The position numbers and the translations under genes were made by a program. The notes below the pieces were generated by a model. It saw nothing but the letters and a program-made list of their open reading frames with translations. It ran no database searches and was not told the origin of the DNA. A stretch of 62,289 bases of DNA, the filler included, from Sluysia triapertura (lineage: Eukaryota), in assembly GCA_046118255.1 (NCBI GenBank). It is 5 parts of 5 records of this genome, joined end to end, with 100 filler letters (N's around TTAATTAATTAA, not from the genome) between each part and the next. Parts side by side here need not be neighbours in the genome. Positions count along the whole stretch, not along the records: positions 1 to 11,391 come from JBJNIA010185191.1; 4 more parts are not named here. One strand, written 5' to 3'. Below, in pieces: positions 3,501 to 51,836 of the stretch; positions within the stretch are counted from its first letter, which is position 1, and each line of letters opens with the position of its first letter.

Positions 3501-4135
3501 ATTTCATCGAATTATTTATCGTCAGAATTTAGTAAAATAATAATTATTAAGTTAAGCTTTAATAAATTTAGCTTCAAAGTCAGACTTAAATTCATTTAAC
3601 CTTTGCAACCCAAGTATTAAGCCTGGGTTAAAATCTGAACTAAATTTCATATTTAACAAACAGAAATCATTTCTCTTGTTTCATTTGTTATTATTATTAT
3701 TATTATTATTATATTTGTTTATTGTCTTTATTGTTAGTTCGTTAATTGTTATAATAGAAAAATATAAAATAAAGTAAAAAATTTTTTTGTTGTTAATTGA
3801 ATTATACGATTTTAATAAAGAAATATTTAGAATTAAATTGTTGTTAATTAGAATTACGATAGAATTACACGATTTTCGACATATTTAGAAGTACATATAA
3901 TTTAATAAATTATTGACTGATTATTTAATCAAGACGAAGAATTAAATAAATTTAATTTAATATCAAAAGACCCTGTTATTAAATAATTTCATTTGCAAGA
4001 GTAAGCCAACTTTTTTCGTAGTTATTTTCTGTGGATACGTCTACTTTATGTTATAAACCGTATACCGCAGACGAACCCGAATTAAAAAAAATTAAATTGT
4101 TAGGTTAAAAAAACAAGAAAAAATCTAGCAATTTT

Positions 4136-4153
4136 TGGCACCCGAATTGAGAC
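4136..4153 (+). promoter_or_regulatory. Primer-binding site, tRNA-Lys(UUU)-like
   Basis: TGGCACCCGAATTGAGAC matches 14/18 to the canonical Lys3 PBS TGGCGCCCGAACAGGGAC. It lies 5 nt after a CA (4129-4130, putative LTR end) and about 300 nt before gag. Confidence 0.7.
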
Positions 4154-4430
4154 GATTTGACATTAAAAGATTAAGGTAAGTTTTAAAGCATTTAAGTAGT
4201 TGAACTATTTTTATTGTTGGATTTTTGTAAATTTAACTACACTTCGTTGTAAGGATTGATATAATTGATAAAGAAAATAGGAGTGGACTACGTAGGGTTA
4301 ATTCATTAGAAAATATTAAAAGTAAAACTAGGAAAACTAAGCCAAATAAGAAAAATATGAAGAAACTTTATGAGATTTAAGAAAATGTATACAAAATATT
4401 TCAGTAAACATTACACACGCAGCTATTTTC

Positions 4431-4860
4431 CAGGATATGCGTAAGTTTAATGGAAATGAAGAAGAATTATGCGATTTTCTTTTCGAATATGACAGTGTTG
4501 CAGAAGCCAACGGTTGGTCAGAAATAGATAAGATTAAGAGGTTTCAGAATTACTTAACTGGAGTCGAAATTCAGACACATAAAGAGATTGAATAAGAGAA
4601 AAAACAAGAAATTGCTTGGATGATATAGGTAAATATTAAGAAACAAAAAGATGACGGGACAGTTTATGAATTCGCTTGCGCGTTAAAATGTTTAGTAGTT
4701 AGAGCTAAGATATCTCATGTTAAGAAAGAGCCAATATTAATAGACAAATTTAAAAATGGTTTAAGACCTGAATTACAAGTATTTGTAAGTTTGATAGATA
4801 ATCAGCCGTTCAAAGAAGTAGTAAAGAAATTAAGGGATATTGAAAGATCTCAGAAAGAAA
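4431..4860 (+). pseudogene. gag: gag capsid domain (retrotransposon gag), disrupted
   Basis: Manual translation: MRKFNGNEEELCDFLFEYDSVAEANGWSEIDKIKRFQNYLTG...KQKDDGTVYEFACALKCLVVRA...LIDKFKNGLRPELQ, with two in-frame stops and no zinc knuckle seen. Confidence 0.85.
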
Positions 4861-5650
4861 CTAAAGTCACAAAAAGGAAAAGGCAACATAAATTATATAG
4901 ATAACAAGGTTTGGTTGCTCCATTACTTCCACTAGAGGAAGGTGTATTTGGCAGATTAATGGGAGAAGTATTATACACTTATAAGTCTAAGAAAGTGGAA
5001 GCCCAAATGAGACCGGCAACCGAATGTACAAATGACTACCAATAATGTACGAAAAAATAGAAACTTATTTAGAACCTGTAACAAGGGTTATATTTCCTAC
5101 TGATAAAATTAAACTGAAAATAATGCACTGTTCAAATGTGATGGCTCGGAATCTAGGATAGATGAAAATTTATGGATTTCACTACCACAAAGAACTCAAG
5201 TTAAAGTACCGAAATTATTGGATTAACGGAACTAAAAGGAAAATTAAAATTCTTGGGTATTAAAACATAAGTATTCAGACATCTATACAAATGAAGATAT
5301 ACAAGCGGCATGGCAAGAGATACTGTTCCCTATAAAAGGATCAAAGGTATTAACGGATATAGTAGATAAGGCAACAGTAGAAAAAGACGGAAGGATAAAT
5401 TTTGAATTATTATTAGGCCCGGATCATTTTAAGAAATCCGCGCAAAATACACTAAAACAAATTTGGGGTAGTTTTCTGATTTTGAGTCAAGCCTCTTCAG
5501 GATTAATTGGTATCTACATTATAATTAAGGTGATAGCATTAATAATATCTCAAGTTTTCTCTGTAGTAGGAATTTATGAGATTTCAGGTTTTGCAGGAAA
5601 ATTAATAATAGGTTGTTTTCCATTTTTGGCAAAATATCTTCTACGTCATC
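4861..5650 (+). pseudogene. C-terminal half of a chuvirus-like/class III (gB-type) envelope glycoprotein, frameshifted
   Basis: Reconstructed peptide GVFGRLMGEVLYTYKSKKVEAQMRPATECTNxLPIMYEKIETYLEPVTRVI...CSNVM...WISLP...DIYTNEDIQAAWQEILFP...KQIWGSFLILSQASSGLIGIYIIIKVIALIISQVFSVVGIYEISGF. It parallels the chuvirus-type G pattern as I remember it (AGEVIHIIKC..ECY.ELPV..FL.P.T.IL; GIYT.EDL....IMFP; WGKFL.FG.ASAG.IGI..II). Confidence 0.72.
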
Positions 5651-5850
5651 ACGAAAATTCACAAATAAACGCATTAAGAAAAGAAATAACACGAACCGAA
5701 AATGAAAATGTGGTATTACAAACAATTCAAAATGATGAAAATGAAGACATTAAAGAATTAAAGGAAAATCTTAAAAGATCCCCAGCAGCACCAATACCAA
5801 ATGTAGTATATATGATAATATGTGCAATTAATAACTATAATAATTCTAAA

Positions 5851-6160
5851 AGGCCAATAACCAATGCCAAAATCAATGGAAGAACAATTTCGGCATTAAT
5901 AGATACAGGAGCAGTGGCATCCTTAATTAATGAAAATCAATTAACAAAAGAAGAACAAAGAAATCTTGGAAATCATTTTTCTCATTTATCAGGAGTTACT
6001 GGAGACGCTATTCACATCGTAGGAGTAATGAAAGCTTTATGCGAGATAGGGCTGAATAATGTTGAAGTAAAATTAAGAGTAAAATTAAAATTGGGAATGG
6101 ATATATTATCACAACTAAAAGGAGTAATACTGGATTTTGACAGTGTCAAACTAATGGATA
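5851..6160 (+). pseudogene. Retroviral-type aspartic protease (PR1), in frame with the glycoprotein TM region
   Basis: INGRTISALIDTGA (DTG at 5902-5910) and LGMDIL; the frame is open from 5248 to 6312. Confidence 0.9.
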
Positions 6161-6599
6161 TTTATTCAAAAAGAACTATTGACGACGACGACGTTTATGC
6201 CGATGAACCATTATGGTTGTTGAGTAGGACAGAGTATATAATGCTAGCAAAGACAAATAGCTCACTAACCGGTCGAATCATGTTCATAGCTTCAGAAATT
6301 AATCAAGAATAATTGGATTAGGTATCGCGGACCCAATCTGTAACAATTGCGAAGGAAAGATACCCGTTCGAATTATAAACGATACAGGAACCAAATTAGG
6401 AAGAATTGTTAATTATAAAATAAAGACACATATTAACACAATAAAATTACAACGCGATATACTAGAGGAGGATTACGGAGAAATTCAAATTAACAATAAA
6501 AATTTAACTAAGAGACAAGAGGAACAACTATACGAAATTATATATCGCTATCCAAGAGCAATTTCAAAGAACAAATATGATATCGGGGACTCCATAATC

Positions 6600-7270
6600 A
6601 TTAAACATGAAATACCATTAACAGAAGATAAGGTAATTCGGAGAAAACCTTATAGAATTCTTGTTTGCAATCAAAAGGAAATGCAAGATCAGATCGATAC
6701 TATGAAAAAGGCTGGAGTAATAATACCAAGCTTTTCTCCATTTTCATTACCGGCATTTCTAGTTAAAAAGAAGGACGGAACGATGCGATTTCAGAAACGA
6801 AATGTTGGACAAACTAGGAAATGCTACTTACTTTACAACTTCAGACTTACAAAGCGGATATTGGCAAATTGAGACAGCAGAGAAATATAAACACAAAACG
6901 GCATTTACATGTGGGAATGAGTTATATGAATGTGAAAAAATGCCATTTGGCTTAACTGGCGCACCATCAACTTTCCAACGTTGTATGAATTTTGTACTAT
7001 CAGGAATAAGAATGTCATGGTCTACATAGATGATATAATATTTTCAAAGGATTTTAAAACTCATTTAGATGATATGGATAATATCTTAAACAGGTTAGAA
7101 GTCACCAGACTCAAAATAAAGCCTACAAAATGTGTATGGGCAAAAGGAAAAGTCGAATTCTTGGGATACATAGTATCTAAGGATGGTATTAAACCTAATC
7201 CAAGAAACGTTGAGAAAGTAGTTAAATTCTTACAACCAGATAGCGTTAAAAAATTCAAAGTTTCTTAGGT
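6600..7270 (+). pseudogene. pol: Reverse transcriptase, frameshifted and internally deleted
   Basis: VKKKDGTMRF, DLQSGYWQI, KTAF, MPFGLTGAPSTFQRCM, YIDD (7023-7034), KC..VEFLGY; the CVDYR segment is missing. Confidence 0.95.
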
Positions 7271-7804
7271 TTAGCCAACTACTACAGAAGATTTGTCAAG
7301 AATTTTGCCAAAATTGCACAACCTCTTAGGAAATTAACAAAGAAAAATGTAGAATTTAAATGGACAGACGAACAGACCAAAGCGTTTAAGGAATTGAAAG
7401 AGCATCTCACTTCAGCACCAATACTAATCTTTCCTGATGTTAGTAAACCGTTTATACTAACTACAGACGCTAGCAATTATGCCATAGGCGCAATTCTAGG
7501 TCAAAAAGATAAAAATAATCGCGAAGCATATGCCAGTCGAAGACTTAATAAAGCAGAAATGAATTACTCAACTGTGGAAAGAGAATGTCTAGCGATTGTA
7601 TATGCATGCAAGTTGTTCAGACACTATTTGCTAGGACAGAAAGTTTACTTATATACTGATCACAAACCTTTAACGTATTTGTACAATCACCGAGACGAAG
7701 TTAGTAGACTTAACAGATGGTTTAATAAATTATCAGAATTTAATCTAGAAATTGTTTATAAACCTGGTAGTTTAAATATGGGACTGACTGTATGTCTAGA
7801 CTAA
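7271..7804 (+). pseudogene. pol: RT connection and RNase H domain
   Basis: PFILTTDASNYAIGAILGQ, YASRRL, NYSTVERECLAIV, YTDHKPL. Confidence 0.93.
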
Positions 7805-7844
7805 TAATGCGGACGATAAATGAAATATCAATTTAATACAGATC

Positions 7845-9060
7845 ATGTCAGTATCGGGAAAATTGCAGAATTCTGAAGAGATTATTAAACATCAGAGAGA
7901 AGATAAAGAAATTTCAACTATTTTAGAAGCATTACAAGCAAGTAGATTAGCCATTATGGATGGGATATTAAAATTTAAAAATAATAAAGATGAGTGGAAA
8001 ACTATCACTCCAGAATCATTAATTATACCAATATTGATACAATTCCATGATGGTCAACTGGGAGGCCATCTTTCAACAAGAAAGACTTTATCAAGAATTG
8101 GAAAACATGGAATTAGATATTAGAAAATGGTACAAGGATTGTTCAATATGCTATCGAAGAAAAAAATACCGGACAAAGGACAAAGGTACCGATGAAACCT
8201 ATGCCAGTACCATTGTCACTAATGGAATTTATGGCTATGGACATAATGGGTCCCCTTCCAGAGACTATTAGTGGAAACAAATATATAATTGTATTTGACG
8301 ACTATTTAACAAAATGGCCCGAAGCTTATCCAATGTCCAATCAAAAGGCTGAAACAGTAGCACAAATACTAGTGGAAAAGATAATATATAGATATGGAAC
8401 TCCTAGAAATTTGCTAACAGATCAAGGAACAAACTTTACTAGCTATGTAATCAAGTCAGTAGGTAAAATCTTTAATATTCTTAAAATTTATACACCTTAT
8501 CACCCGTAAACTGATAGCCGAGTGGAACTTTTTAACAAAACTCTTATCAGTATGATTAAGTCATACGTAAACGACAGACAAACTGATTGGGATTTGTACA
8601 TCGCACCATGTCTTTTTGCATATAGAAGTTCAGTACATCCGTCAACTAACTTTACCCCCTTTTATTTAATGTATGGAAGGCATTCTAATATGCCAGTGGA
8701 TTTGGAATGGGTTCCACCCATTTCACAGTATTTGGAAATTCCGGAATATGTAACTATAATGAGAGAACAATTGCAAGACGCTTGGAAACGAGCAGGTCTA
8801 CAAATTAAATATTCTCAAGAAATATATAAGGACACATACGACAAACAGCAAAAGAACATACATTTAAAATAGGAGACGAGGTATTAATAGACTATCCAGT
8901 AACTAAACCTGGTCAATCACCTAAGTTACATAGACCTTTTAAAGGACCTTATCTTATAACAAAAGTCACTGATACAAACGTGTTTGTTAAAGATCCTAAT
9001 AAAGTTAATTCGGAAACATTTGTAGTACACGTTAATAGATGTAAAATGGCACCAAAAGAG
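7845..9060 (+). pseudogene. pol: Integrase (HHCC, DDE core, GPY/F), frameshifted
   Basis: HDGQLGGHLS..CSIC; MDIMGPLP; DYLTKWPEAYP; TDQGTNFTS; TPYHP; FKIGDEVL...FKGPYLITKV (about 8863-8970). Confidence 0.93.
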
Positions 9061-9189
9061 GAATATAATTTAAGAAATAGAAAAGTACAAAAATCTAAAT
9101 TGAAAGTTCAACCAAGAAACAAAGATCAAGATAAACCGCCTTCAGTTCAATCATTGCGAAATAAACAAGTGGTATTTATGATGCGTTCC

Positions 9190-9540
9190 CATGGAAATGA
9201 CCTGGCCCGTATAATGCAAAACTTGCGGTTTAACGGGCGATGGGTTAGAGCAATTGTAGATACCGGTGCTACTATTACAGTGGTTCATAAAAATTTCTTA
9301 ACTACTTGGGAATCAGTATTCTTAAATAGACCAAGTTCAATAACATATAATGTTAATCAAACACCTATAAATATCAATGGAACGCTATTATGCTACATAG
9401 AAGTATTAGGACAGTATGTACAAACTCTAGTAAATGTTTGGGATAATAGCCCATACGAATTAATATTAGGTATGGATGTTATTAATAAATTAGAAGATAT
9501 GGTCATTCACAGCAAATACGGATTTATAAAAATACCACCA
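9190..9540 (+). CDS. Second retropepsin-like aspartic protease (PR2) downstream of integrase
   Basis: FNGRWVRAIVDTGATITVV (DTG at 9259-9267) and ELILGMDVI, in the same open frame as the integrase GPY/F tail (ORF 8980-9630). Confidence 0.85.
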
Positions 9541-9687
9541 GGATCAAATATGATCATTCCCCAACTAATAGTTCCACAAGTTGGTGATGAATTAACCTTA
9601 TATCGAATGCCTATGTCAAATCCACCATAACAAGTTCCAGACTTACCTTTATCTGATATTGTCGAATCTACACTTCATTTATCAGAT

Positions 9688-10446
9688 GTGTCTTGGGCAT
9701 CACCATCGACAATTACATCAGAGGAGAATTCGGATTCAGGAATCAGTTCAGATGTTCAGGATACCGTAATGATAATGGCCAATATAAGAAAAAGAAATTG
9801 TTCTGAGAAAATAATTTGTTGGATTTCTATTTTAATTATGATTTTTCTGTCACTTATGACTAATGTTATGGCAACAGAAACAGACGAGGAATACAAGAAT
9901 ATGAATATTGCTACAAATCATGGCAGGGAACAGAAAATAATTATCACCGATATATATAACCAATATTGGAAATTTGAGTTTATTTCCAAGAAAATGATTC
10001 TGCGACATAAATTTGAAATTTATTGTATCTATTTAAAGCCATTACTAGTGGGGACACCACATCATTTAAACGGTATCCCACATTGTCTGCATTATGCATA
10101 TAGACATATGCTAATAACTTTTTCTATAGACACTCCAAGAAATACACGAGATATTCGGAAATTTATCAAACAAATAGATCATTTGAAAAATGAGGAAACA
10201 ACGAAAATACAAACAATCTTCTCCAATTATGGTACAACTACTAAACAGATACGTAATTTAACTAAGTCAACTATAGGAGTTACCACGACACACTCTTATA
10301 ATCTTTTTATAATGTTACTAATTTTTACGTTACTATACATATTTTGGACTATATTCTATGTGTACCAAATAGGTAAGAAGATACGAGTTCCAGTAAATAA
10401 TAAAAATCTTATACCTTTTAAAGTGTGGAGGGCAATATATTTTTAA
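9688..10446 (+). CDS. Membrane protein ORF of unknown family at the env position
   Basis: Signal-like segment ICWISILIMIFLSLMTNVMA-TE, about 140-aa putative ectodomain, TM LFIMLLIFTLLYIFWTIFYVY. Same frame as PR2, separated only by one TAA (9628-9630). Confidence 0.6.
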   Translation: MSWASPSTITSEENSDSGISSDVQDTVMIMANIRKRNCSEKIICWISILIMIFLSLMTNVMATETDEEYKNMNIATNHGREQKIIITDIYNQYWKFEFISKKMILRHKFEIYCIYLKPLLVGTPHHLNGIPHCLHYAYRHMLITFSIDTPRNTRDIRKFIKQIDHLKNEETTKIQTIFSNYGTTTKQIRNLTKSTIGVTTTHSYNLFIMLLIFTLLYIFWTIFYVYQIGKKIRVPVNNKNLIPFKVWRAIYF

Positions 10447-11316
10447 TTTTATTTTTTATGTTATAATTTATGTTATAATTTTTTATTAATTTGACTTTAT
10501 TCCTTATTTCATAAATGTTTAACTTTAAAAAAACAATTTTAACTTTAAAAAAACAATTAAACAACTTTAATTTAAATTTTAACAATAAGGGCTTAAGGCC
10601 CGAAATGATTAAGAATGAACAAGTAATTAAAACATTAAAATAAACTGCAAGGTTTATTAACAATAAATTCAAATAAAAATATAATAGATATAAGGTTTCA
10701 AATAAGAACGAAATAAACAATAAACATTGAACAAATAATGATGGAATACCAACTACTTTGTTTTCTTCAGAAGTCTTTTTGAAATAATCTGCATTTGTCT
10801 TTTGTTGCCATTCTTTTTTGACCTTCCAATTAGAAGTATCGGTATTCTTTTCTACCACCCAAACGATATCTCCTTCTTTAAATTCTGTTTCTTCTATAGA
10901 ACAATCCACTAGAATATATCTTAGAATTGATTATTTGGCTTCAATTATTTCACTAAGATTAACCGTCAGCAAAAGTGATTCTTGATATTTGTTTATAATT
11001 CGTTCAAAACTATTAGTTTCGTGTTCTGTACTTTCCGATGAATCCGATTGATTGCATAAAAAATATTTATTTAAAAATTCAATAGTTAAATCACAAAATT
11101 CCATTTTACAAACGAATTGATGATAATCACAAGCTGTTTTTGAATGAACTTGCAAACATGTATCTCCAATACATACTTCAGTTACATCATGAGAACAAGG
11201 ATCATCCATAATCGCGTCACATGGATCTAGAAATACACCATTTGACCAAATGTAGACATCATCACAGTCACATTTAAATTTAGTCAAATCAATATATCCA
11301 GAATTTGAAAAATTAC
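10418..11316 (-). pseudogene. Antisense Cys-rich ORF of unknown family, one internal stop, 5' end cut by an insertion
   Basis: ORFs 10931-11287 and 10418-10909 share a frame and are separated by a single TAA; CDCDD..DPCD..DPCS..VCIGDTC..ACDY..VCKMEFC. The part below about 10700 is likely AT-rich run-through. Confidence 0.4.
10420..10435 (+). promoter_or_regulatory. Degenerate polypurine tract candidate
   Basis: AAAGTGTGGAGGGCAA follows a T-run at the end of the last ORF, the usual PPT position; it is not purely purine. Confidence 0.4.
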
Positions 11317-11391
11317 TTAACCTTTGTCAGTCAACCTGGGGGGTAATTTTACCCCCCATGGGAAGAAAAATGTGAATAACTTTAAAACTTT
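11317..11391 (+). mobile_element. piggyBac-like transposon terminus inserted at TTAA
   Basis: TTAA|CCTTTGTCAGTC followed by palindrome GGGGGGTAATTTTACCCCCC; interrupts the antisense ORF and is truncated by the gap. Confidence 0.4.
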
Positions 11392-11491
11392 NNNNNNNNN
11401 NNNNNNNNNNNNNNNNNNNNNNNNNNNNNNNNNNNTTAATTAATTAANNNNNNNNNNNNNNNNNNNNNNNNNNNNNNNNNNNNNNNNNNNN
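11392..11491. other. Artificial assembly linker
   Basis: Exactly 100 bp of N with central TTAATTAATTAA (stops in all six frames). Confidence 0.97.
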
Positions 11492-11654: not shown

Positions 11655-12027
11655 AAAAATATTGCGTAAAAGCAAGAATAGAATTCAAAATCATGACAAT
11701 AATTTACAAATGTTTACAAATGTCCTCAATATCTTTTAGAAATACAACAAAAATTGGAAAGCAAGATGAATATTTCATTGAGGTATGATAATCTATACAG
11801 AATCCGCAGTGATAGCAAGCTAGGTGATAGGTAGTATACTGTTTATGTTTCAAAAATATACAACCAGTTACCAGAGTATGTCAAAGTACTGGAAGATTAT
11901 GAAATATTTAAGAAAAAGGCAAAGTTGTTTCTGTTTCAGGAATATTATAGTGAATCATTTAATTTAAGCGCTTTTGAGTACTTACTTTGTAGTAGATATG
12001 AGTGTAATAAAGATTAATATATTATTA
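11655..12027 (+). mobile_element. 5'-truncated LINE 3' end (CR1/L2-like), copy 1
   Basis: Encodes KIYNQLPEYVKVLEDYEIFKKKAKLFL, typical of a LINE ORF2 C-terminus; homologous to copies at about 19.0 kb and 46.1 kb. Confidence 0.65.
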
Positions 12028-18999: not shown

Positions 19000-19335
19000 T
19001 AATAATAATAATATATTAATTTATATTGCCCTTACAGCTACTGCGTAAGTACTCAAAAGCGCTTAAGGTAAATCATTCACTATAATATTTCTGAAACAGA
19101 AAGAACTTTGCTCTTTCTTAAATATTTCATAATCTTTCAGTAATTTGACATTCTCTGGTAACTGGTTGTATATTTTTGAAACATAAACCATATATAACTT
19201 ATCACTGTGGATTCTTGTATAGATTATCTTCTTCAATGAAATATTCATCTTGGTTTCCAATTTTCGTATTATTTCTAAAACATATTATTTTAAATTATAT
19301 TCTGGCTTTTATTGGCAACCAATGTAATTCTTTAA
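19000..19335 (-). mobile_element. LINE 3' end, copy 2, with (ATT)n tail
   Basis: Reverse-complement match to 11655-12027; ORF 19063-19260 KIYNQLPENVKLLKDYEIFKK. Confidence 0.65.
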
Positions 19336-21171: not shown

Positions 21172-21682
21172 ATTTAATATTATTATTTATAATTTATTAT
21201 TTAGAACCTGAGTAGTTTAATGGGTGTATATAGTTTAAAGCACAAACTGCTTTGATCAATTTTGAAAAATTTAATAAAGTTTGCGTAAATAATGTAAAAA
21301 AAGACGATTTTATAAACTTTTATACAATTACATCAATAAAATCAGAATTATACTGATACATCTGAAAGGCAGTGAGATAATGTTGCACTATTGTTGAGCA
21401 ATCTATTTTGAGAGATCAAGATCTTGTGATTTTTAGATCGATGATCTTTTTTATTTATTAACTAATTGTCTGCATAACATCTGAATTGATTTTTTAGTCG
21501 AAGATCACAATACTGGCCTTTTGATGGATGACCATATCATTTTTCCTTTCTTAAATTAAGTCAATAATTTAAATAACTATTTGATCCATCTAAATCAATT
21601 TTCCCACATGATATTTCACCATTTATCAGCTTATAATTCGTTAACAAACTTATTAAAATTATAATAATTATTAAATTTCCAG

Positions 21683-22724
21683 GATTCTCCTCCATCAATA
21701 ACAATACCTCAGTACTCTGCAGCTGTTTCGAATATAGATACTAATTGTTTCCCAGTCATTTGGAATATCAAAACTCATCTTACATTCATGATGGCATGTC
21801 AATCTTGGAACAATAAAGGTCGAATAGTATTGGCTGGTAAAGAACTTTTTTTTCAAGAATTAGTGACAGACAGTACAAATTCAAAGATAAAAAACAGTGT
21901 ATTAAAATGGTTATCACCTAAAAATCCGAATCCAAATATTCATGATAGTTTATCGTTTAGATCACTAATGGATATGAAGTCGAAATTAAAACTCGGTGAT
22001 ATCGTTATTTACGATTCATACCAAGACCATGATACGGAAATACATAATACATTAAAACAAATGCTTTTGTCAGGACAATTATCAATGGTATTTAATAAAA
22101 ATATTTGGTTTTCATCGACACAAAAAAGTATTGAAAATGTTCGAGATTTATTATCCGAATTTGGTGTTGCTATTATTTATAAATTTATCAATTGGTCTAG
22201 TAGTACTACCTTGACTTTGGATTTAAAAACATTAGATGACAACTATATAGGTTGTCAAGGTTGTCTTCGTAAAGCACTAAAAAGTCATACTTATTTAATG
22301 GACAAAGGTATGGCAATAATTGAATCCTCACAGCAAATACCGATACATTTGATTATGAAAAGTAGTATTAAAAATGCTTTAATTTCAACATTAAAATTTT
22401 ATATTCCATACATTAAATATAATTGTCCTTGTAAAATAATTTCAATCGATGATATAAATGTCAGAAAATTTCTTTTTATTGTTGGAGAATTATTCAAATT
22501 GCCATTTTTAAGTGATTATGGATTAACATCGCCATATATTGAATCATTCCCGGGCAATCTTAAAAAGCTACTTTAGAAATCAAAGGTATTACAGATGATA
22601 CATTAAATTCAATTGGTTATTATTTAAAAAGCAGGTGATACTTTGAAATATCGTATTATTAAATCTAGTGGTACTTGGAAAATTAGTATCGGTTGTCATA
22701 CTGATGTTATACCATTGAACAGAG
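21683..22724 (+). pseudogene. TCAF/FAM115-like (M60-like peptidase family) gene exon with two compensating frameshifts
   Basis: AG|GAT acceptor and GT donor at 22725; CFPVIWN..KGRIVLAGKE..SVLKWL, YIESFPG, SIGYYLKAGD, WKISIGCHTD (compare TCAF VQIGCHTD). Frameshifts lie in A-runs at about 22562 and 22626. Confidence 0.7.
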
Positions 22725-37600: not shown

Positions 37601-39650
37601 ACTAACTTTACACCATCTAGAAATATCCAAATATCCACAAATATTTACTTTAAACTTAAAAAACTGAAAAAGTATATTTACAGACAACTCCAATAAACAG
37701 AGCAGAAACCAGAAACTAATAGATAAATGTGAAGGAATCCATCATACTTAATTACGGATCAAACGTAAACAAAAACTAATTAACTATATAAATAAGTACA
37801 TTGTTTCTAATTCAAAATATTTTAAAACATGAATTATAACAATAAGTTATTTAAGTATTTTAAAGTATTAGTATTCTCTAATTAAAAATATTATCAGTAT
37901 GAAACTTAATTATTGAAATAATTAATAATTTTATGATAATTTTAAGAAATATCTCTTATAGTTTTGAAATCTATAATTGAAAAGAAATATGACTTGCAAG
38001 ATAATTTGCGATTAAAGTCTTTAATCAAGGCATTTTAGAATAAATACAAAGAATGTAGTATCATATTGAAATGTATGGAAAAGTATAGAAGGTGCATAAT
38101 AAAAGAAAAAAATAACATATGTAATTTTGAGAATGACTTAAATTGAATAATTTTACATGTTTTTATGTCAGTTATTGTAATAAAATTGTAATTTGAGTTT
38201 TGAGCCACCTTATAATTTTTGATGATTATTTTAGTTTTTGGGCTTTCCAATTATTGAATGATAATATATTTCTTAAGGAATTATATAAGGAATTATATAA
38301 TTATAAGGAATTATAATTTTAATTTAAAATATTTATCCTCCCTTGAAGTATTAATCTATTAACTTGCGCAATGCACAATATAAACCCGATAGTATATTTA
38401 AAGCCAAACAATATAAAACCAAATAATATAATACAATCTCGTAATAAAGTAAACGTAAATAATATAATGAACCAAAACTACGTAAGATACTATAGTAATA
38501 AAATATAAACCCAAACCATAACAAACCATTATAAAATAAACTCCATCATTATAATAAAGGTAAATAATTCCCCATTTAATAACATTCACTAACCATTTCC
38601 AATTTACTAACATTTAATCGAAAATTAAAAACACTGCACAAAAAACATACGAGCACTTAAGACCGCTTGATATAGTGCGGATGTATAGCTAATGTTCTAA
38701 AAAATTCCGCTGCGACCTATAATTTAAGAATAATCTGTCTACTTACACGTGCTGCATTTCTGCACAAATTTTCAGTTTGTTCATTATGGCCACTTTTGAA
38801 TATATTATATGGTTTCGGAATACTAATATGATTTAGATATTTATTTAGAGTTAAAATATACTTTGATGTTTTAAATATACTTAAAATTATCGTTATCATA
38901 TTAGAGTTAAATGTCATCTTCTCCAAAAATTCTTTATTATGATAAAAAAATTGAAATAAATTAAATTTAAAATAAATATATTTATTTAATCTATTTAACA
39001 ACAAAATTAATACACAGGGCATAAATTTATTGAATATTTTAAAATGGCATATAACATGAAAACTAAAAGCTGTAAAGTTATTTAGAACATTGAACAAGTT
39101 GTTTGCATTTAAGGATATGTACGCCTTCATCTGCTGTGAATTATTTTATTTCCAAAACGTTCATAAGATTACTGTATTCAATATTATTTCTATGTTCAAT
39201 CAGATTTTCATTAACTAATAGATTATTGTTATGTAACATTTCTATTCATTTCTATTTATGATATTTATTATATTATCATAAATATTTATTATAACTCTAA
39301 TATTTAATGATGATTTTTATTAAAATTATATATTTATCTACTATTTGAATTATTATTAAATCAATTGTTAAATTAGTGTATTTTTAAATAATAATTTTGG
39401 AGTTGTTTGGTTATTTGATATTAAATTCAATGTTACTTCTGGTACTTTAAAACTAATGATTAAATCTTGGGTCATTTTTATTCGAAAATACATTATGTGA
39501 TAGTTAAAAATTTGATTAAAATTTAATTTGTGTTTTAATATGACTATGAAAATTATAGATACTTTTGTATTAGAATTTTCAATTAAATGAATAAAGACAT
39601 CAAAGGTTTTATTTAAAATTTTGAAACATAAATAATTTAAACTTAATTTT

Positions 39651-40490
39651 TTATTCTCTCTGCGGCATGAGACAGTATCCATATTCTGTCACCTGAAAAC
39701 AAAATATGGTTATAGTTATTATTAATTAAATAAAATAAAGTTATTACTTTAATATCTTTAATTTCATCACCCTTAGGATTATTAACGTTGTTACAACAAA
39801 ATTTAACATAAAGAGTATTACTTCCAGTTTTATGATCATAGACATTATCAGACTCAATTTCGTAAATACAGTTTTTATCATCATTTATATTATTACAAGA
39901 ATATTTGATAGTGAATTTACGTCTGAAGTTGCAACTTCTACATTTCTTGGCGATATGATAATCAAATTTAATACTTAAATTATAACATTGATGATGTATG
40001 ACAAATTTTGTATCCAGAACATGGTACTTGTGAGCATTGATAAAGTGATTATTGTTTTTCTGTTTGCGATCATCGGGCGTTACTTTTTTTATTCGAAGGT
40101 TGTCCGATTCTTGGTTTATTCTTATTATTTCTTCACCGGTTTGAGTTGGTTCTTCATCTAATTTCAAGGCATGATTTTTATAAAGCTGAAAAATATCATT
40201 TGAAGCTTCTATATGCCGAGGTTTGAAATTATCAAAAGAACGATCATTTGTCGTCAGTGTATTTTGGTTATAACTATCTCCAAAATTTTTGATTAAACTT
40301 TCACTAAAAACATGAATGTCGGAGAAATATTCCGTAACTTTACGCTGCTTCAAGAATCTGTTTTGTATCGTCTGTAATATTTCTTTGTCACTTCTTAAAT
40401 CTCTCGCCTTTACTTGCGACTTCAATAGTCGAACTTCAATTTGAGCAGTGTGTTTCTGTAAAGATAGTGGTGGACGAGTAACATCTTGGA
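39651..40490 (-). CDS. Unidentified spliced gene, last two exons (long exon ending at 39748; exon 39692-39651)
   Basis: A 260-aa ORF is unusual at this AT content. A phase-0 55-bp GT-AG intron (39747-39693) gives ...DIK|VTEYGYCLMPQRE-stop. Cys-rich C-terminal half; 5' end uncertain. Confidence 0.55.
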
Positions 40491-43400
40491 TTATGGCAAG
40501 GAGCCATTTTCAATTTCGACTCCTTGATTTAGTACAAGTTGGGACAAAAATGATATATGACTAACTCCAGATTTGTTTGAATACTCTATAACAGAATCGA
40601 CGTCAAAATCGAAGCCAAAGAATTCAATATTTGGCTAATTATTATTGGAGATAGAATTTAATTAAGTTTAGAATTCAATTTGAAAAAGAAAAGTTTTCGA
40701 ATTTTTTGGAAAGATACACTCATATGATTTTTATTTGAAGAGAATTAATAATCGTTAATTTGTTATTTTTAAGGACAACTTTAATCACTTTATAAATTCA
40801 ACTTTAATTAAATAAAAGATTTCGTATCATATGATTTTTATACTACACAAATTCAATTTTTAAAATTATATAATAAATATTAATTGAAATTACAATTAAT
40901 ATCACAAATCTTGATAATTGATTATTTAAAAATACAAATTTCATAACGGAATAATCGAATTATAAATTTATATTAAAAATCTATAACATTTAAATTCATT
41001 ATCTTAAATCTTTTCAAAAATTTTGTTGGATACAACATATTCAACGTCTTGATATTATTGACGTCCCTTCAATATTATTTTGTTGTATGTTAATCAACGA
41101 CATTATTAAATATCTCTTGAATTTTATTATAATCAACTACACTTTCAATTTATTGTCATAGATCCTTTAATATCTTTTGATTTTATTGTGGGCAATTATA
41201 CTATCAATAATTAACTGTGTAATATTGTTTGATTAAGTGTTTAATTTGTGATTAATAAAGTTACTTAAGAAGTTATTTGTTATAAAATTAATCGTTGTAA
41301 GAAGTTATACAAAATTAATTGTATAAATTACCTCTAGCATTAATATCTTTTCTTAACGCTGAAAATCTATGAACTGGCCTTTTAGTGAATAAGTCAAGTA
41401 TCATAGAGAACTCACTTTAAAATATACAAAAAGATCAACAATAAAATAACAAATAAAAGAAAATAACATAATATAGTTGGCAAAAAAGTCTTCAAGTATA
41501 CTAACTAGTAGATAATCATTAACCTATTATAACTATAGAGAAAAATTGTCCCATACATTTTAACCTTAACCTCTATATAACTATTGCAAATTATCACACT
41601 ACACTATCTTTATAGAATCTCATTTTAAAACGACAATTCGTTTGATTTCGATTTTAACTGATTACTATTCCTTATTAAATTTTGAATTTATACTAACTCT
41701 ATTAAAGCTTACTTTAAATTGATAATCTTAATGATAATGATTTTAATTTTACTCTGAAATGATGTTAGAATTAATTTGAAAATTTGAAAACTAAAATAAT
41801 TTGAAAAATATAATAATAATTTGAACATATAATCGGTTCATAAACATAAAGTTTAAGTTTCGAATATCCCAGCTTTGTAAATTATAATAAAATGAGTAAA
41901 GATAGTTAAGCATAAAGCTTATATAAATTTTTAAATAAAGCTACAATTAGTATTACATTTCGATCATTAGCTTCAAATTTATTGCAGTATATATTGAAGC
42001 GTTATAATGAAGATTAAAATGTGGAATATTTTACTTTTATTTTTTACAATATTGTCGATAAACAGTTTATTGGCATTCGGCGATTCTCTACGATACTTAA
42101 TGATAATTCTTCCATTCTTAAATTCCTTAGACCATAGCTTAATAATTACAGGGAGACATTCATATTATTATTTTGAATATTTCTTTTTTTCCTGCATCAT
42201 TGATACATGTAAATTATAATATTAACATGAAATATATTACTAATATGTAATTTTCCACAAAAAAGCAACACTTCCAGTAGTAATTTTTTATCAAGATTAT
42301 TGTAAATACAAAAGTGCCTAGCTTAAAAAATCAAGCATAAACCACATCCTACATATTATATACAGAAATCAGTAACTGTATCGAAATGTCAATTTCATGT
42401 TAATATTAATCACATCTATAAAATAACGTTAGAACAATTGGCATAAAATAATGATTGACATTGACATGAAATATTTAAAATAAATATTACGTTTATTATT
42501 TTTAATAATAAGAATTATTATTATTATTATAATGATTTATCATTATTAACTAATTATCATCTTATTCAATCTTTATTAAATGATGGGTTTGCTGTTTGCT
42601 TGTTTGTCTGTAGAATATGATAGAAAATTTACATATTTCTAAATATATTTATCTAACCATTTTATCAGTCGTAAATAATATATCATAAATATTAAGTATA
42701 TAGTAGTTAAAATTTGTGAAATTATGAAATTAAATTCTTTTTGTTAATTTTAGATTTATTTAACTTTTTGTTTATAATTACATATTATTCTGATGCAAAT
42801 GTGTTTGTGAAAATTTTGCTTTAAATTACTATTAAATTAATGGCGACTTACGTTGATATAAATAATCAGAAAAGAAAATATTTGTTTGTATACATAAAAA
42901 TACATCTAAATCAAATTACATATATAATTTATTTTTAATTTTTATAATTTAAAAAATTAATGAAATAATACAGAATACACGAAACGAAGAATATAACTTA
43001 TCACATTGAATTAGCAAGTAAAGAAATGAAAAACCTATAATTGGTTTAAAATAAAAATGAATAACGAATTTAACAAACACAACTACTAAATATGGTACTT
43101 CATTATAATATTAATTTATTAATATATTGTTGGGATTGGCTATATTATCATTTGTAGAACTTTAACTATAAGTAACATAATAGAATTTAACTAAAGTGAA
43201 CTATTATTACTGAATGAAATTGAAGAATATATTGGCCATAGTGTTATATTATCGGAAAATATTATATAAAAAAATAACTTATTCAAACTGAATTAAGAAT
43301 TTTGGGAGTAAAATATCACAATAGAATAATAATTCCGATTGAAATATTTTGATTAATAATCTTAGTTAATAATATTACTTTTATTGACAGTTTCTAAAAG

Positions 43401-46087: not shown

Positions 46088-46412
46088 ATAATAATAATAA
46101 TAGCGCTCAAATCTACTGCAAAATAAGTACTCAAAAGCGATTAAAATAAATCATTCACGATAATATTTATGAAACAAATAAATTTGCCTTTTTCTTAAAT
46201 ATTTCATAATCTTCCAGTAATTTGACATTCCCTGGTAGCTGGTTGTACATTTTTGAAACATAAACGTATTATCACTTATTATCACTGTGGATTTCCAAAT
46301 TTTTTATTATTACTAAGAGATTTTCAGAACTTCCGTAATGTAAGCATTTGTAAATTATTGTCCTGATTTTTAATTATATTCTTGTTTTTATTGGCAATCA
46401 ATGTAATTCCTT
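46088..46412 (-). mobile_element. LINE 3' end, copy 3, with (ATT)n tail
   Basis: Homologous to the 11.7 kb and 19.0 kb copies. Confidence 0.65.
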
Positions 46413-51356: not shown

Positions 51357-51836
51357 GTTAAAAAGAAGATTTCCAAAGTACCACACGGAAACGGTGTACT
51401 TGATGATGTGGAAGATATAGTAGATCAAGAAACTAGTGAAAGTATCAATGCAGATGAAGAAGAAATAGAAGTTGATGACTGTGAAATGGACAAAGAACAT
51501 GTTCATGAGAATAAAAATAATGTTATTATTTCTAATGTACCTTCAGTAACAACTGTACCACCACAACCACCACCGCAGCAACAAGCTCCTTCTCGTAGCT
51601 TCTTGTCTAAAATATTTCCATTTCGATCTTCATCATCATCTACTAATACCACCAATACAACCATAACCGTTAATAATACTGTTACAAGTGCCCAACCGTC
51701 AACCAGTATCCCTGACGATGCTACACCTTTACCAGATCAATATGAACCATCGCTACGATTTGAGGACCTCAAGAAAATTATCAAGCAGCATGGTGGACAT
51801 GCACTGGATTTTAAAGGAGAATCATACACATTCAAG
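51357..51836 (+). CDS. CERT1: Ceramide transfer protein, internal exon (middle region)
   Basis: AG/GT bounded, phase 0; ends HGGHALDFKGESYTFK (CERT DFKGEAITFK). Confidence 0.88.

Follow-up and report, generated by a model that had tools for sequence, protein, structure and literature searches.

A Ty3/gypsy-type retroelement from Sluysia triapertura encodes a complete retropepsin domain, hereafter PR2, downstream of its integrase and in frame with the GPY/F module, in addition to another retropepsin (PR1) adjacent to reverse transcriptase (RT). In the textbook arrangement, Ty3/gypsy elements and retroviruses have one protease, located before RT. The element described here is a dead, two-protease member of a real and apparently undescribed variant, a clade of Ty3/gypsy elements with gag-env-pol polyproteins and multiplied, mobile protease domains. 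We are highly confident that PR2 is a true feature of this family.

A second protease in a decayed element

The window, by which we mean the whole 62,289-nt stretch of DNA analysed (GCA_046118255.1), is AT-rich (19–33% GC) and contains microsatellites and N gaps. Its exon-like frames and the type of element suggest an animal host. Approximately 4.1–11.4 kb of it is occupied by a retroelement with many stop codons and frameshifts, and this copy is dead. The features of the element lie on the plus strand unless stated otherwise. Upstream of gag, we noticed by eye a primer-binding-site-like stretch beginning with TGG (4136–4153), which may be akin to a tRNA-Lys primer site. No LTR pair was found within the window, and the 3' end of the element meets an N gap at 11392. 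A gag remnant broken by stop codons (4374–4901) was recognised by tblastn with an intact relative, P0161, of which residues 35–187 (the Retrotrans_gag region) matched 4446–4844 (E = 3.5e-8). Next comes env, also broken (4905–5742), the C-terminal portion of a fusion glycoprotein of gB-like, chuvirus type, which was assigned based on PF24664 (E = 1.2e-19 in the frame of PR1, on residues 10–165 of P0003, and E = 0.017 on 4905–5042), hydropathy, with a membrane segment at ~5491–5589, and collinearity with the relatives. At 4844–4911, gag meets the middle of env almost directly; gag's C-terminal portion and approximately the first half of the glycoprotein are missing compared with the relatives. 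The last piece of env shares its reading frame with PR1 (5848–6132), which was detected by RVP above the cutoff (E = 6.1e-7) and has a short in-frame deletion, leaving ~6–10 residues fewer than in the relatives. Further downstream are a spacer, RT and RNase H (RH) distributed over several frames (6303–7801; RVT_1, E = 1.3e-14 and 2.3e-8; RT_RNaseH, E = 6.7e-37 in Pfam searches), followed by the zinc finger and core of integrase (IN), broken by frameshifts and a stop codon (7824–8872; Integrase_H2C2, E = 4.9e-5; rve, E = 1.7e-9). The GPY/F module (8851–9057) was found by phmmer with that of P0005 (59 bits), and is 48–55% identical to those of the relatives.

The PR-RT-RH-IN order with a GPY/F module is that of Ty3/gypsy elements (Metaviridae), and a gB/Monjiviricetes-type glycoprotein between gag and pol, of which the window copy retains the C-terminal part only, is the arrangement of GAG-ENV-POL errantiviruses with gB-type env. 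The element departs from the canonical single protease before RT, as two protease domains are present in the window. Nevertheless, protease number is a variant feature, and gives no reason to remove the element from the Ty3/gypsy superfamily. An antisense pair of frames split by one stop codon (10418–11326, minus strand) had no Pfam match and only Atlas matches below 0.8, and it is uncertain whether these frames are part of the element. They encode, in order, a Cys-rich stretch, a stretch that is SH3-like by eye and a hydrophobic stretch; positions 11166–11400 are deeply covered by contigs of the public run X1 (see below). Elsewhere in the window, exon-like frames with no matching Pfam profile (51357–56785) presumably resemble a ceramide-transfer (CERT/COL4A3BP-type) gene. 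A dispersed repeat occurs in three copies in both orientations (11824–12020, 19038–19205 and 46088–46279; 82–92% alike), and two open frames had no Pfam match (21668–22576, plus strand, 302 codons; 39643–40509, minus strand, 288 codons).

As the first-pass annotation had claimed, the GPY/F module runs through a basic linker into a retropepsin without any stop codon, as frame 1 is open from 8830 to 9627 (266 codons). The linker (9058–9207) was delimited by alignment and bears a Y-x-L-R motif common to the relatives. By eye in the alignment, it ends in a hydrophobic strand (VVFMM), the counterpart of which before PR1 is VVYMI. PR2 (9208–9507) is a complete retropepsin domain, recognised by Pfam, a PR profile, a fold model and Foldseek. 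It possesses both the D[TS]G motif and the downstream hydrophobic-G-x-D motif of retropepsins, namely IVDTGA, with DTG at 9259–9267, and ILGMD at 9463–9477. Both gag-asp_proteas (PF13975; E = 2.2e-8, 35 bits, cutoff 28.2) and RVP (PF00077; 22.6 bits, cutoff 20.7) scored above their Pfam cutoffs, in agreement with the family assignment of the first-pass annotation. The single-lobe AlphaFold model, which was built on a six-row alignment, reached a pLDDT of 80.6 and had 222 PDB matches at E ≤ 0.001 in Foldseek, the best of which were Ddi1 and retroviral proteases (E = 3e-7, TM 0.62); the sequence itself also matched Ddi1 in the PDB (E = 3.2e-4). Ddi1 and retroviral retropepsins constitute MEROPS A2/A28. 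PR2 shares with them the fold and the D[TS]G half-site but merely 17–22% identity, and is closer to the proteases of its own clade (30–33%). A six-frame scan of the window with the PR profile detected PR1 and PR2 and no further domain. The two are identical at 31 of 104 positions (30%), so that the description of PR2 as clearly diverged from PR1 stands.

In the window copy, the frame of the GPY/F module and PR2 is offset from that of the integrase core, which stops in frame 2 at 8870–8872; the frame break lies near 8840–8870. Thus, the fusion of PR2 with a whole integrase is seen in the relatives and not in this copy. Evidence on other copies came from one public run (X1), which may be the source of the window itself and in which depth does not represent copy number. 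On 3800–11400, 14,696 X1 contigs were placed, with coarse summed depths of 29,876 and 58,467 in the bins of PR2, of the same order as 41,514 in the bin of PR1 and 70,288–116,564 over integrase, against ~2,000 in the upstream flank. Contigs of other copies cover PR2, one of them being ~84% identical over 9161–9491, and none of the best 15 of 256 joints, all at depth ≤56, was a clean removal of PR2. Near the break between integrase and GPY/F, there is a length difference between the window and nine contigs. At the stop codon after PR2 (9628–9630), all 34 contigs listed differ from the window and none carries a stop. By tblastn, P0157 also aligns across this codon in a single segment (8851–9885), from GPY/F through PR2 into the tail. 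The contigs differ at both breaks, and thus both look private to the window copy, so the family likely had one frame running from integrase through PR2 into the tail.

The tail (9631–10446) comprises 271 codons in the frame of PR2. Hydropathy suggests a Ser-rich linker, a membrane segment (~9799–9879), a domain predicted to be outside and another membrane segment (~10297–10374). The tail domain had no Pfam or Atlas match, its fold model reached a pLDDT of 38.5, and the window tail matched none of the tails of the relatives. The X1 depth is thin over parts of it (6,018 at 9642–9895 and 1,200 at 10150–10403), and the tail may accordingly differ among copies. In the relatives, the tails of P0004, P0005, P0008, P0010, P0012, P0154, P0155 and P0157–P0159 contain a Cys-containing repeat, present once to three times, which had no Pfam match and looks fibronectin-III-like by eye. 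Another tail type, Cys-rich and helical, is common to P0016, P0161 and P0162, and is unlike that of the window.

Intact relatives and the history of the proteases

A phmmer search with the GPY/F-PR2 frame against 1.84 billion representatives yielded 195 matches. Among the best 150, which we examined, P0005–P0008 have a protease behind GPY/F in one frame. A second search of this type, with the same region of P0008 as the query, returned 80 proteins including 74 new ones, of which five (P0154–P0157 and P0161) have a post-integrase protease and the other 69 do not. At least nine intact relatives therefore possess integrase, GPY/F and protease in a single frame. The spacing from GPY to DxG is 81–108 residues, and the linker motif Y.[LI]R is present, in all ten elements with a post-integrase protease, the window included. 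Three of the nine (2,855–3,108 aa) combine env and Pol with the extra protease and a tail anchored in the membrane, all in one protein. P0161 (2,871 aa) has exactly the order of the window (gag, env, one protease, RT, RH, IN, protease and two membrane segments), and is collinear with it from gag to PR2. A membrane segment follows the last protease in six of the nine; P0006 and P0007 end early, and P0156 has none. Word-based homologue searches with PR2 or P0001 as the query gave no match, and no relatives were found in viral contigs. The integrase piece matched six distant metagenomic loci (40–48%), five of which have one protease, located upstream of the integrase match, and a second protease was absent from all six.

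Nearly all members of the clade are unnamed proteins of public assemblies. The longest relatives are single frames of 2,627–3,181 aa. They consist of gag, a signal-like segment, a gB-like env (matching PF24664 over its full length, E down to 2e-97), a membrane segment and one or two proteases, then RT, RH, IN and an optional protease, followed in most cases by a membrane segment, an outside domain and an anchor. Single gag-env-pol frames were found in P0012, P0156, P0157, P0160, P0161 and P0162. The database entry of the 2,627-aa polyprotein P0012 (HBK71150.1) assigns it to a Flavobacteriaceae MAG as a hypothetical protein, likely because a contig of eukaryotic origin was placed in a bacterial bin. 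In P0154, three protease-like domains lie behind integrase, arranged around ankyrin repeats, which also occur in P0008, and pre-RT extra proteases flank C2H2 fingers in P0156 and P0157. Four proteases follow env in one frame of P0018, and two precede RT in P0004; as both come from a single 21,743-base contig, they likely represent one element with six proteases. P0039 also has a protease after integrase, but was dropped, as it shows two gag matches, lies outside the clade and is likely a tandem of two elements. The first-pass annotation had allowed at most a chromodomain in the post-integrase slot and had envisaged a two-protease polyprotein. Two domains are indeed what the window holds; nevertheless, both statements fell short for the clade, in which the slot is occupied by proteases, by zinc-finger-like or ankyrin cargo and by a membrane protein, and up to four protease domains share one frame.

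A careful integrase tree of 27 rows, which replaced a quick tree of 49 rows, placed the window inside a clade of 21 rows (support 98/94). A post-integrase protease is present in 10 and absent in 10 of the 20 rows that could be scored, the remaining row, P0017, being too short after GPY/F. This share is an overestimate, as both searches for relatives used queries with a post-integrase protease; P0009 and P0138, scored as lacking it, end within 145 residues and are possibly cut short. At least five gains or losses are needed on the tree, and P0161 has the domain while its sister P0162 does not. Eight of the 10 members lacking it have a membrane segment after integrase, and other members of the clade carry two to four extra proteases before RT.

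The protease tree comprised 44 domains and 104 columns and has long branches. One split (97/93) has 13 of 15 RT-adjacent proteases on one side and, on the other, all 13 pre-RT extras together with 11 of the 12 post-integrase domains. A single clade of the 12 post-integrase domains was rejected (AU test, p = 0.001; the groups for the AU tests were chosen after viewing the protease trees), and these proteases have thus been repeatedly duplicated or moved. One paralogue is pre-RT in P0005 and P0157 and post-integrase in P0007 (97/89), so that the position of a protease seems exchangeable. The free tree groups PR2 with the RT-adjacent proteases (97/93), but a position among the accessory proteases is no less likely (AU p = 0.52). 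PR2 may either be an independent old duplicate of the lineage of PR1 or have branched early from the accessory lineage.

The D[TS]G motif is retained by 12 of 14 post-integrase domains, the two losers being second copies in tandem, and the second motif, G-x-D/N, by nearly all, although identity to the nearest paralogues is only 21–35%. The profile also finds domains without the motif, and the retention of D[TS]G is thus not purely a detection bias. The core and post-integrase proteases of one element are 21–31% identical. Between elements, the post-integrase proteases diverge faster than integrase: they are 35% (P0008 and P0154) and 32% (P0006 and P0155) identical where the integrase cores are 89% identical, and in the closest pair, P0005 and P0157, the post-integrase protease is 74% identical against 95% for the core protease. 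The core proteases of P0161 and P0162 are themselves 46% identical at 90% RT identity, and one pair of pre-RT extra proteases is well conserved (92%). Judged by these identities, fast divergence is not peculiar to the post-integrase proteases.

Possible roles of the second protease

Our preferred explanation, to which we give about even chances of being right as a whole, is that PR2 likely arose by duplication of a protease of the element and likely serves as an accessory cutter at the C-terminus of a membrane-tethered polyprotein. In particular, PR2 likely functions in freeing integrase from a membrane-anchored tail; processing of the downstream membrane protein, as proposed in the first-pass annotation, would fit the anatomy. 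Class III fusogens have a single-anchor topology. Based on this topology and on hydropathy, the polyprotein would cross the membrane such that gag is cytosolic, env is luminal, PR-RT-RH-IN-PR2 is cytosolic, and the tail domain is luminal and followed by the final anchor. Pol would then form a loop in the cytosol, held at one end by the anchor of env and at the other by the first membrane segment of the tail. Integrase would need to be cut from the tail in order to act, and PR2 is located at that junction. A PR2 half-enzyme would pair with its counterpart in an adjacent chain of that membrane, and the dimer would cut its own flanks, freeing integrase of the tail and releasing PR2. The hydrophobic strand before both proteases of the window is a possible cut site; two unsupervised Gibbs searches for a processing-site motif locked on other motifs. 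Half of the scorable clade members have no post-integrase protease, and most of these possess a membrane tail of this type; PR2 is thus not required for the tail cut and is at most accessory. In the members without PR2, PR1 alone would release the tail, and PR2 would contribute extra capacity on the spot or another site preference and no essential step. The pre-RT extras, up to four in one frame (P0018), are not explained by a role in tail release.

A broader reading, which we regard as possible though somewhat improbable, treats the proteases of these enveloped retroelements as a mobile and multiplying module. Up to approximately six distinct active proteases per element would each have their own junction or host target, and some would be activated by pairing within the chain and not by capsid assembly. 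Such a set of proteases would have evolved because of the position of env between gag and pol and the tethering of Pol to the membrane at both ends. If true, this would be a new processing route for a retroviral-type polyprotein.

It is rather unlikely, in our judgement, that the extra proteases are host-directed cargo acting on defence, cell death or ubiquitin pathways and freed from the polyprotein like the cargo of Burro elements, in which case repeated duplication and fast change would mirror a host conflict. The low identities of the post-integrase proteases relative to integrase cores and core proteases are in line with such a role, as are the neighbouring ankyrin repeats and C2H2 fingers, the seemingly exchangeable position of one paralogue, and the ankyrin, BIR and BCL2-like cargo described in the accessible text on Burro (PMC6431247). 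Nevertheless, the core proteases of P0161 and P0162 have diverged fast too, and one pre-RT extra is well conserved.

The repeated gains or losses, the difference between P0161 and its sister, the catalytic motif lost in two of 14 domains and the lack of a single post-integrase clade could also be explained by near-neutral passengers. If template switching copies a domain together with its flanking cut site, the duplicate would excise itself, be cheap and be lost later. We consider this unlikely, as the first motif in 12 of 14 domains and the second in nearly all have been kept at 21–35% identity between paralogues.

Retropepsins need two halves, and it is conceivable, as the first-pass annotation suggested, that PR1 and PR2 of one chain pair into an active dimer. 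Processing would then not depend on crowding driven by Gag, which may be lacking in a gag-env-pol layout. DTG is retained in both domains, which are predicted on the same side of the membrane, and, to judge by PDB titles, tethered dimers of HIV-1 protease have been solved as constructs. This pairing is nonetheless quite unlikely: ~1,070–1,080 residues (RT, RH and IN) lie between the two in intact relatives, core and post-integrase proteases share just 21–31% identity, and frames carry one to four proteases, odd numbers included, with half of the clade lacking the post-integrase copy.

It is extremely improbable that PR2 belongs to an unrelated nested element, which the first-pass annotation had named as a refutation, that it was captured from a DDI1-type gene of the host or that it results from misassembly, despite the decayed copy, the gapped assembly and the Ddi1 domains being the top PDB matches by both sequence and fold. 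PR2 is a real and old second protease of the polyprotein of the element itself, and these alternatives are largely refuted by the in-frame layout and spacing shared with nine relatives, together with the higher identity to clade proteases (30–33%) than to Ddi1 (17–21%), the lack of any gag, RT or repeat accompanying PR2 in Pfam and repeat searches of the window, and the coverage of PR2 by contigs of other copies.

Relation to described elements and implications

The design of a single gag-env-pol polyprotein is itself already known, according to the accessible accounts of Burro and of gB-type errantiviruses. In the accessible text on Burro (GYPSM1), a giant planarian gypsy element of >30 kb, one polyprotein of 4,873–5,140 aa has env in frame between gag and PR-RT-RH-IN; the env is related to mononegavirus fusion glycoproteins, and accessory cargo includes MATH, SUMO-like, BCL2, BIR and ankyrin domains (PMC6431247). 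The elements studied here are alike in the single polyprotein of the relatives, in env and PR1 sharing one frame in the window, and in the ankyrin repeats of P0008 and P0154. On the other hand, that text names one protease and mentions neither a post-integrase or multiplied protease nor a C-terminal tail with two membrane segments (PMC6431247). The relatives are also smaller, 2,600–3,200 aa against 4,873–5,140 aa as compared by description only, and in the ~7-kb element of the window Pfam detected no MATH, SUMO-like, BCL2, BIR or ankyrin cargo. Another article has one mention of Burro without domain detail in its accessible part (PMC11410931).

GAG-ENV-POL errantiviruses with an HSV/gB-type env are reported from Nematoda, Bryozoa and Platyhelminthes, and are not monophyletic according to the accessible text (PMC13524379). 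They resemble the present elements in the PR-RT-RH-IN order of pol and the gB-type env ahead of it, but the same text shows a single PRO in one figure legend and describes no extra protease or post-integrase tail (PMC13524379). In LTR elements of rotifers, the accessible text describes a varied cargo in the post-pol slot, gained and lost repeatedly: env, GDSL esterase, DEDDy exonuclease or a transmembrane protein, including proteins of 210–230 aa with two membrane segments (PMC5408684). Their cargo differs in being a separate ORF3, with no protease or in-frame fusion to integrase described there (PMC5408684). One candidate report of extra proteases (PMC11836539) proved unrelated, as far as its accessible part goes. 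Searches of full-text literature found no extra or post-integrase proteases, while figures, supplements and Repbase entries may show such domains.

A clade with multiplied, motif-keeping proteases behind integrase means that the one-protease rule is not fixed, and this exception is tied to an unusual gag-env-pol polyprotein, which, by its inferred topology, would span the membrane. P0161 and P0162 offer a natural pair with and without the extra protease, in which the cutting of the polyprotein and new retropepsin specificities can be addressed. Annotation tools that assume one protease would misread such elements as nested insertions.
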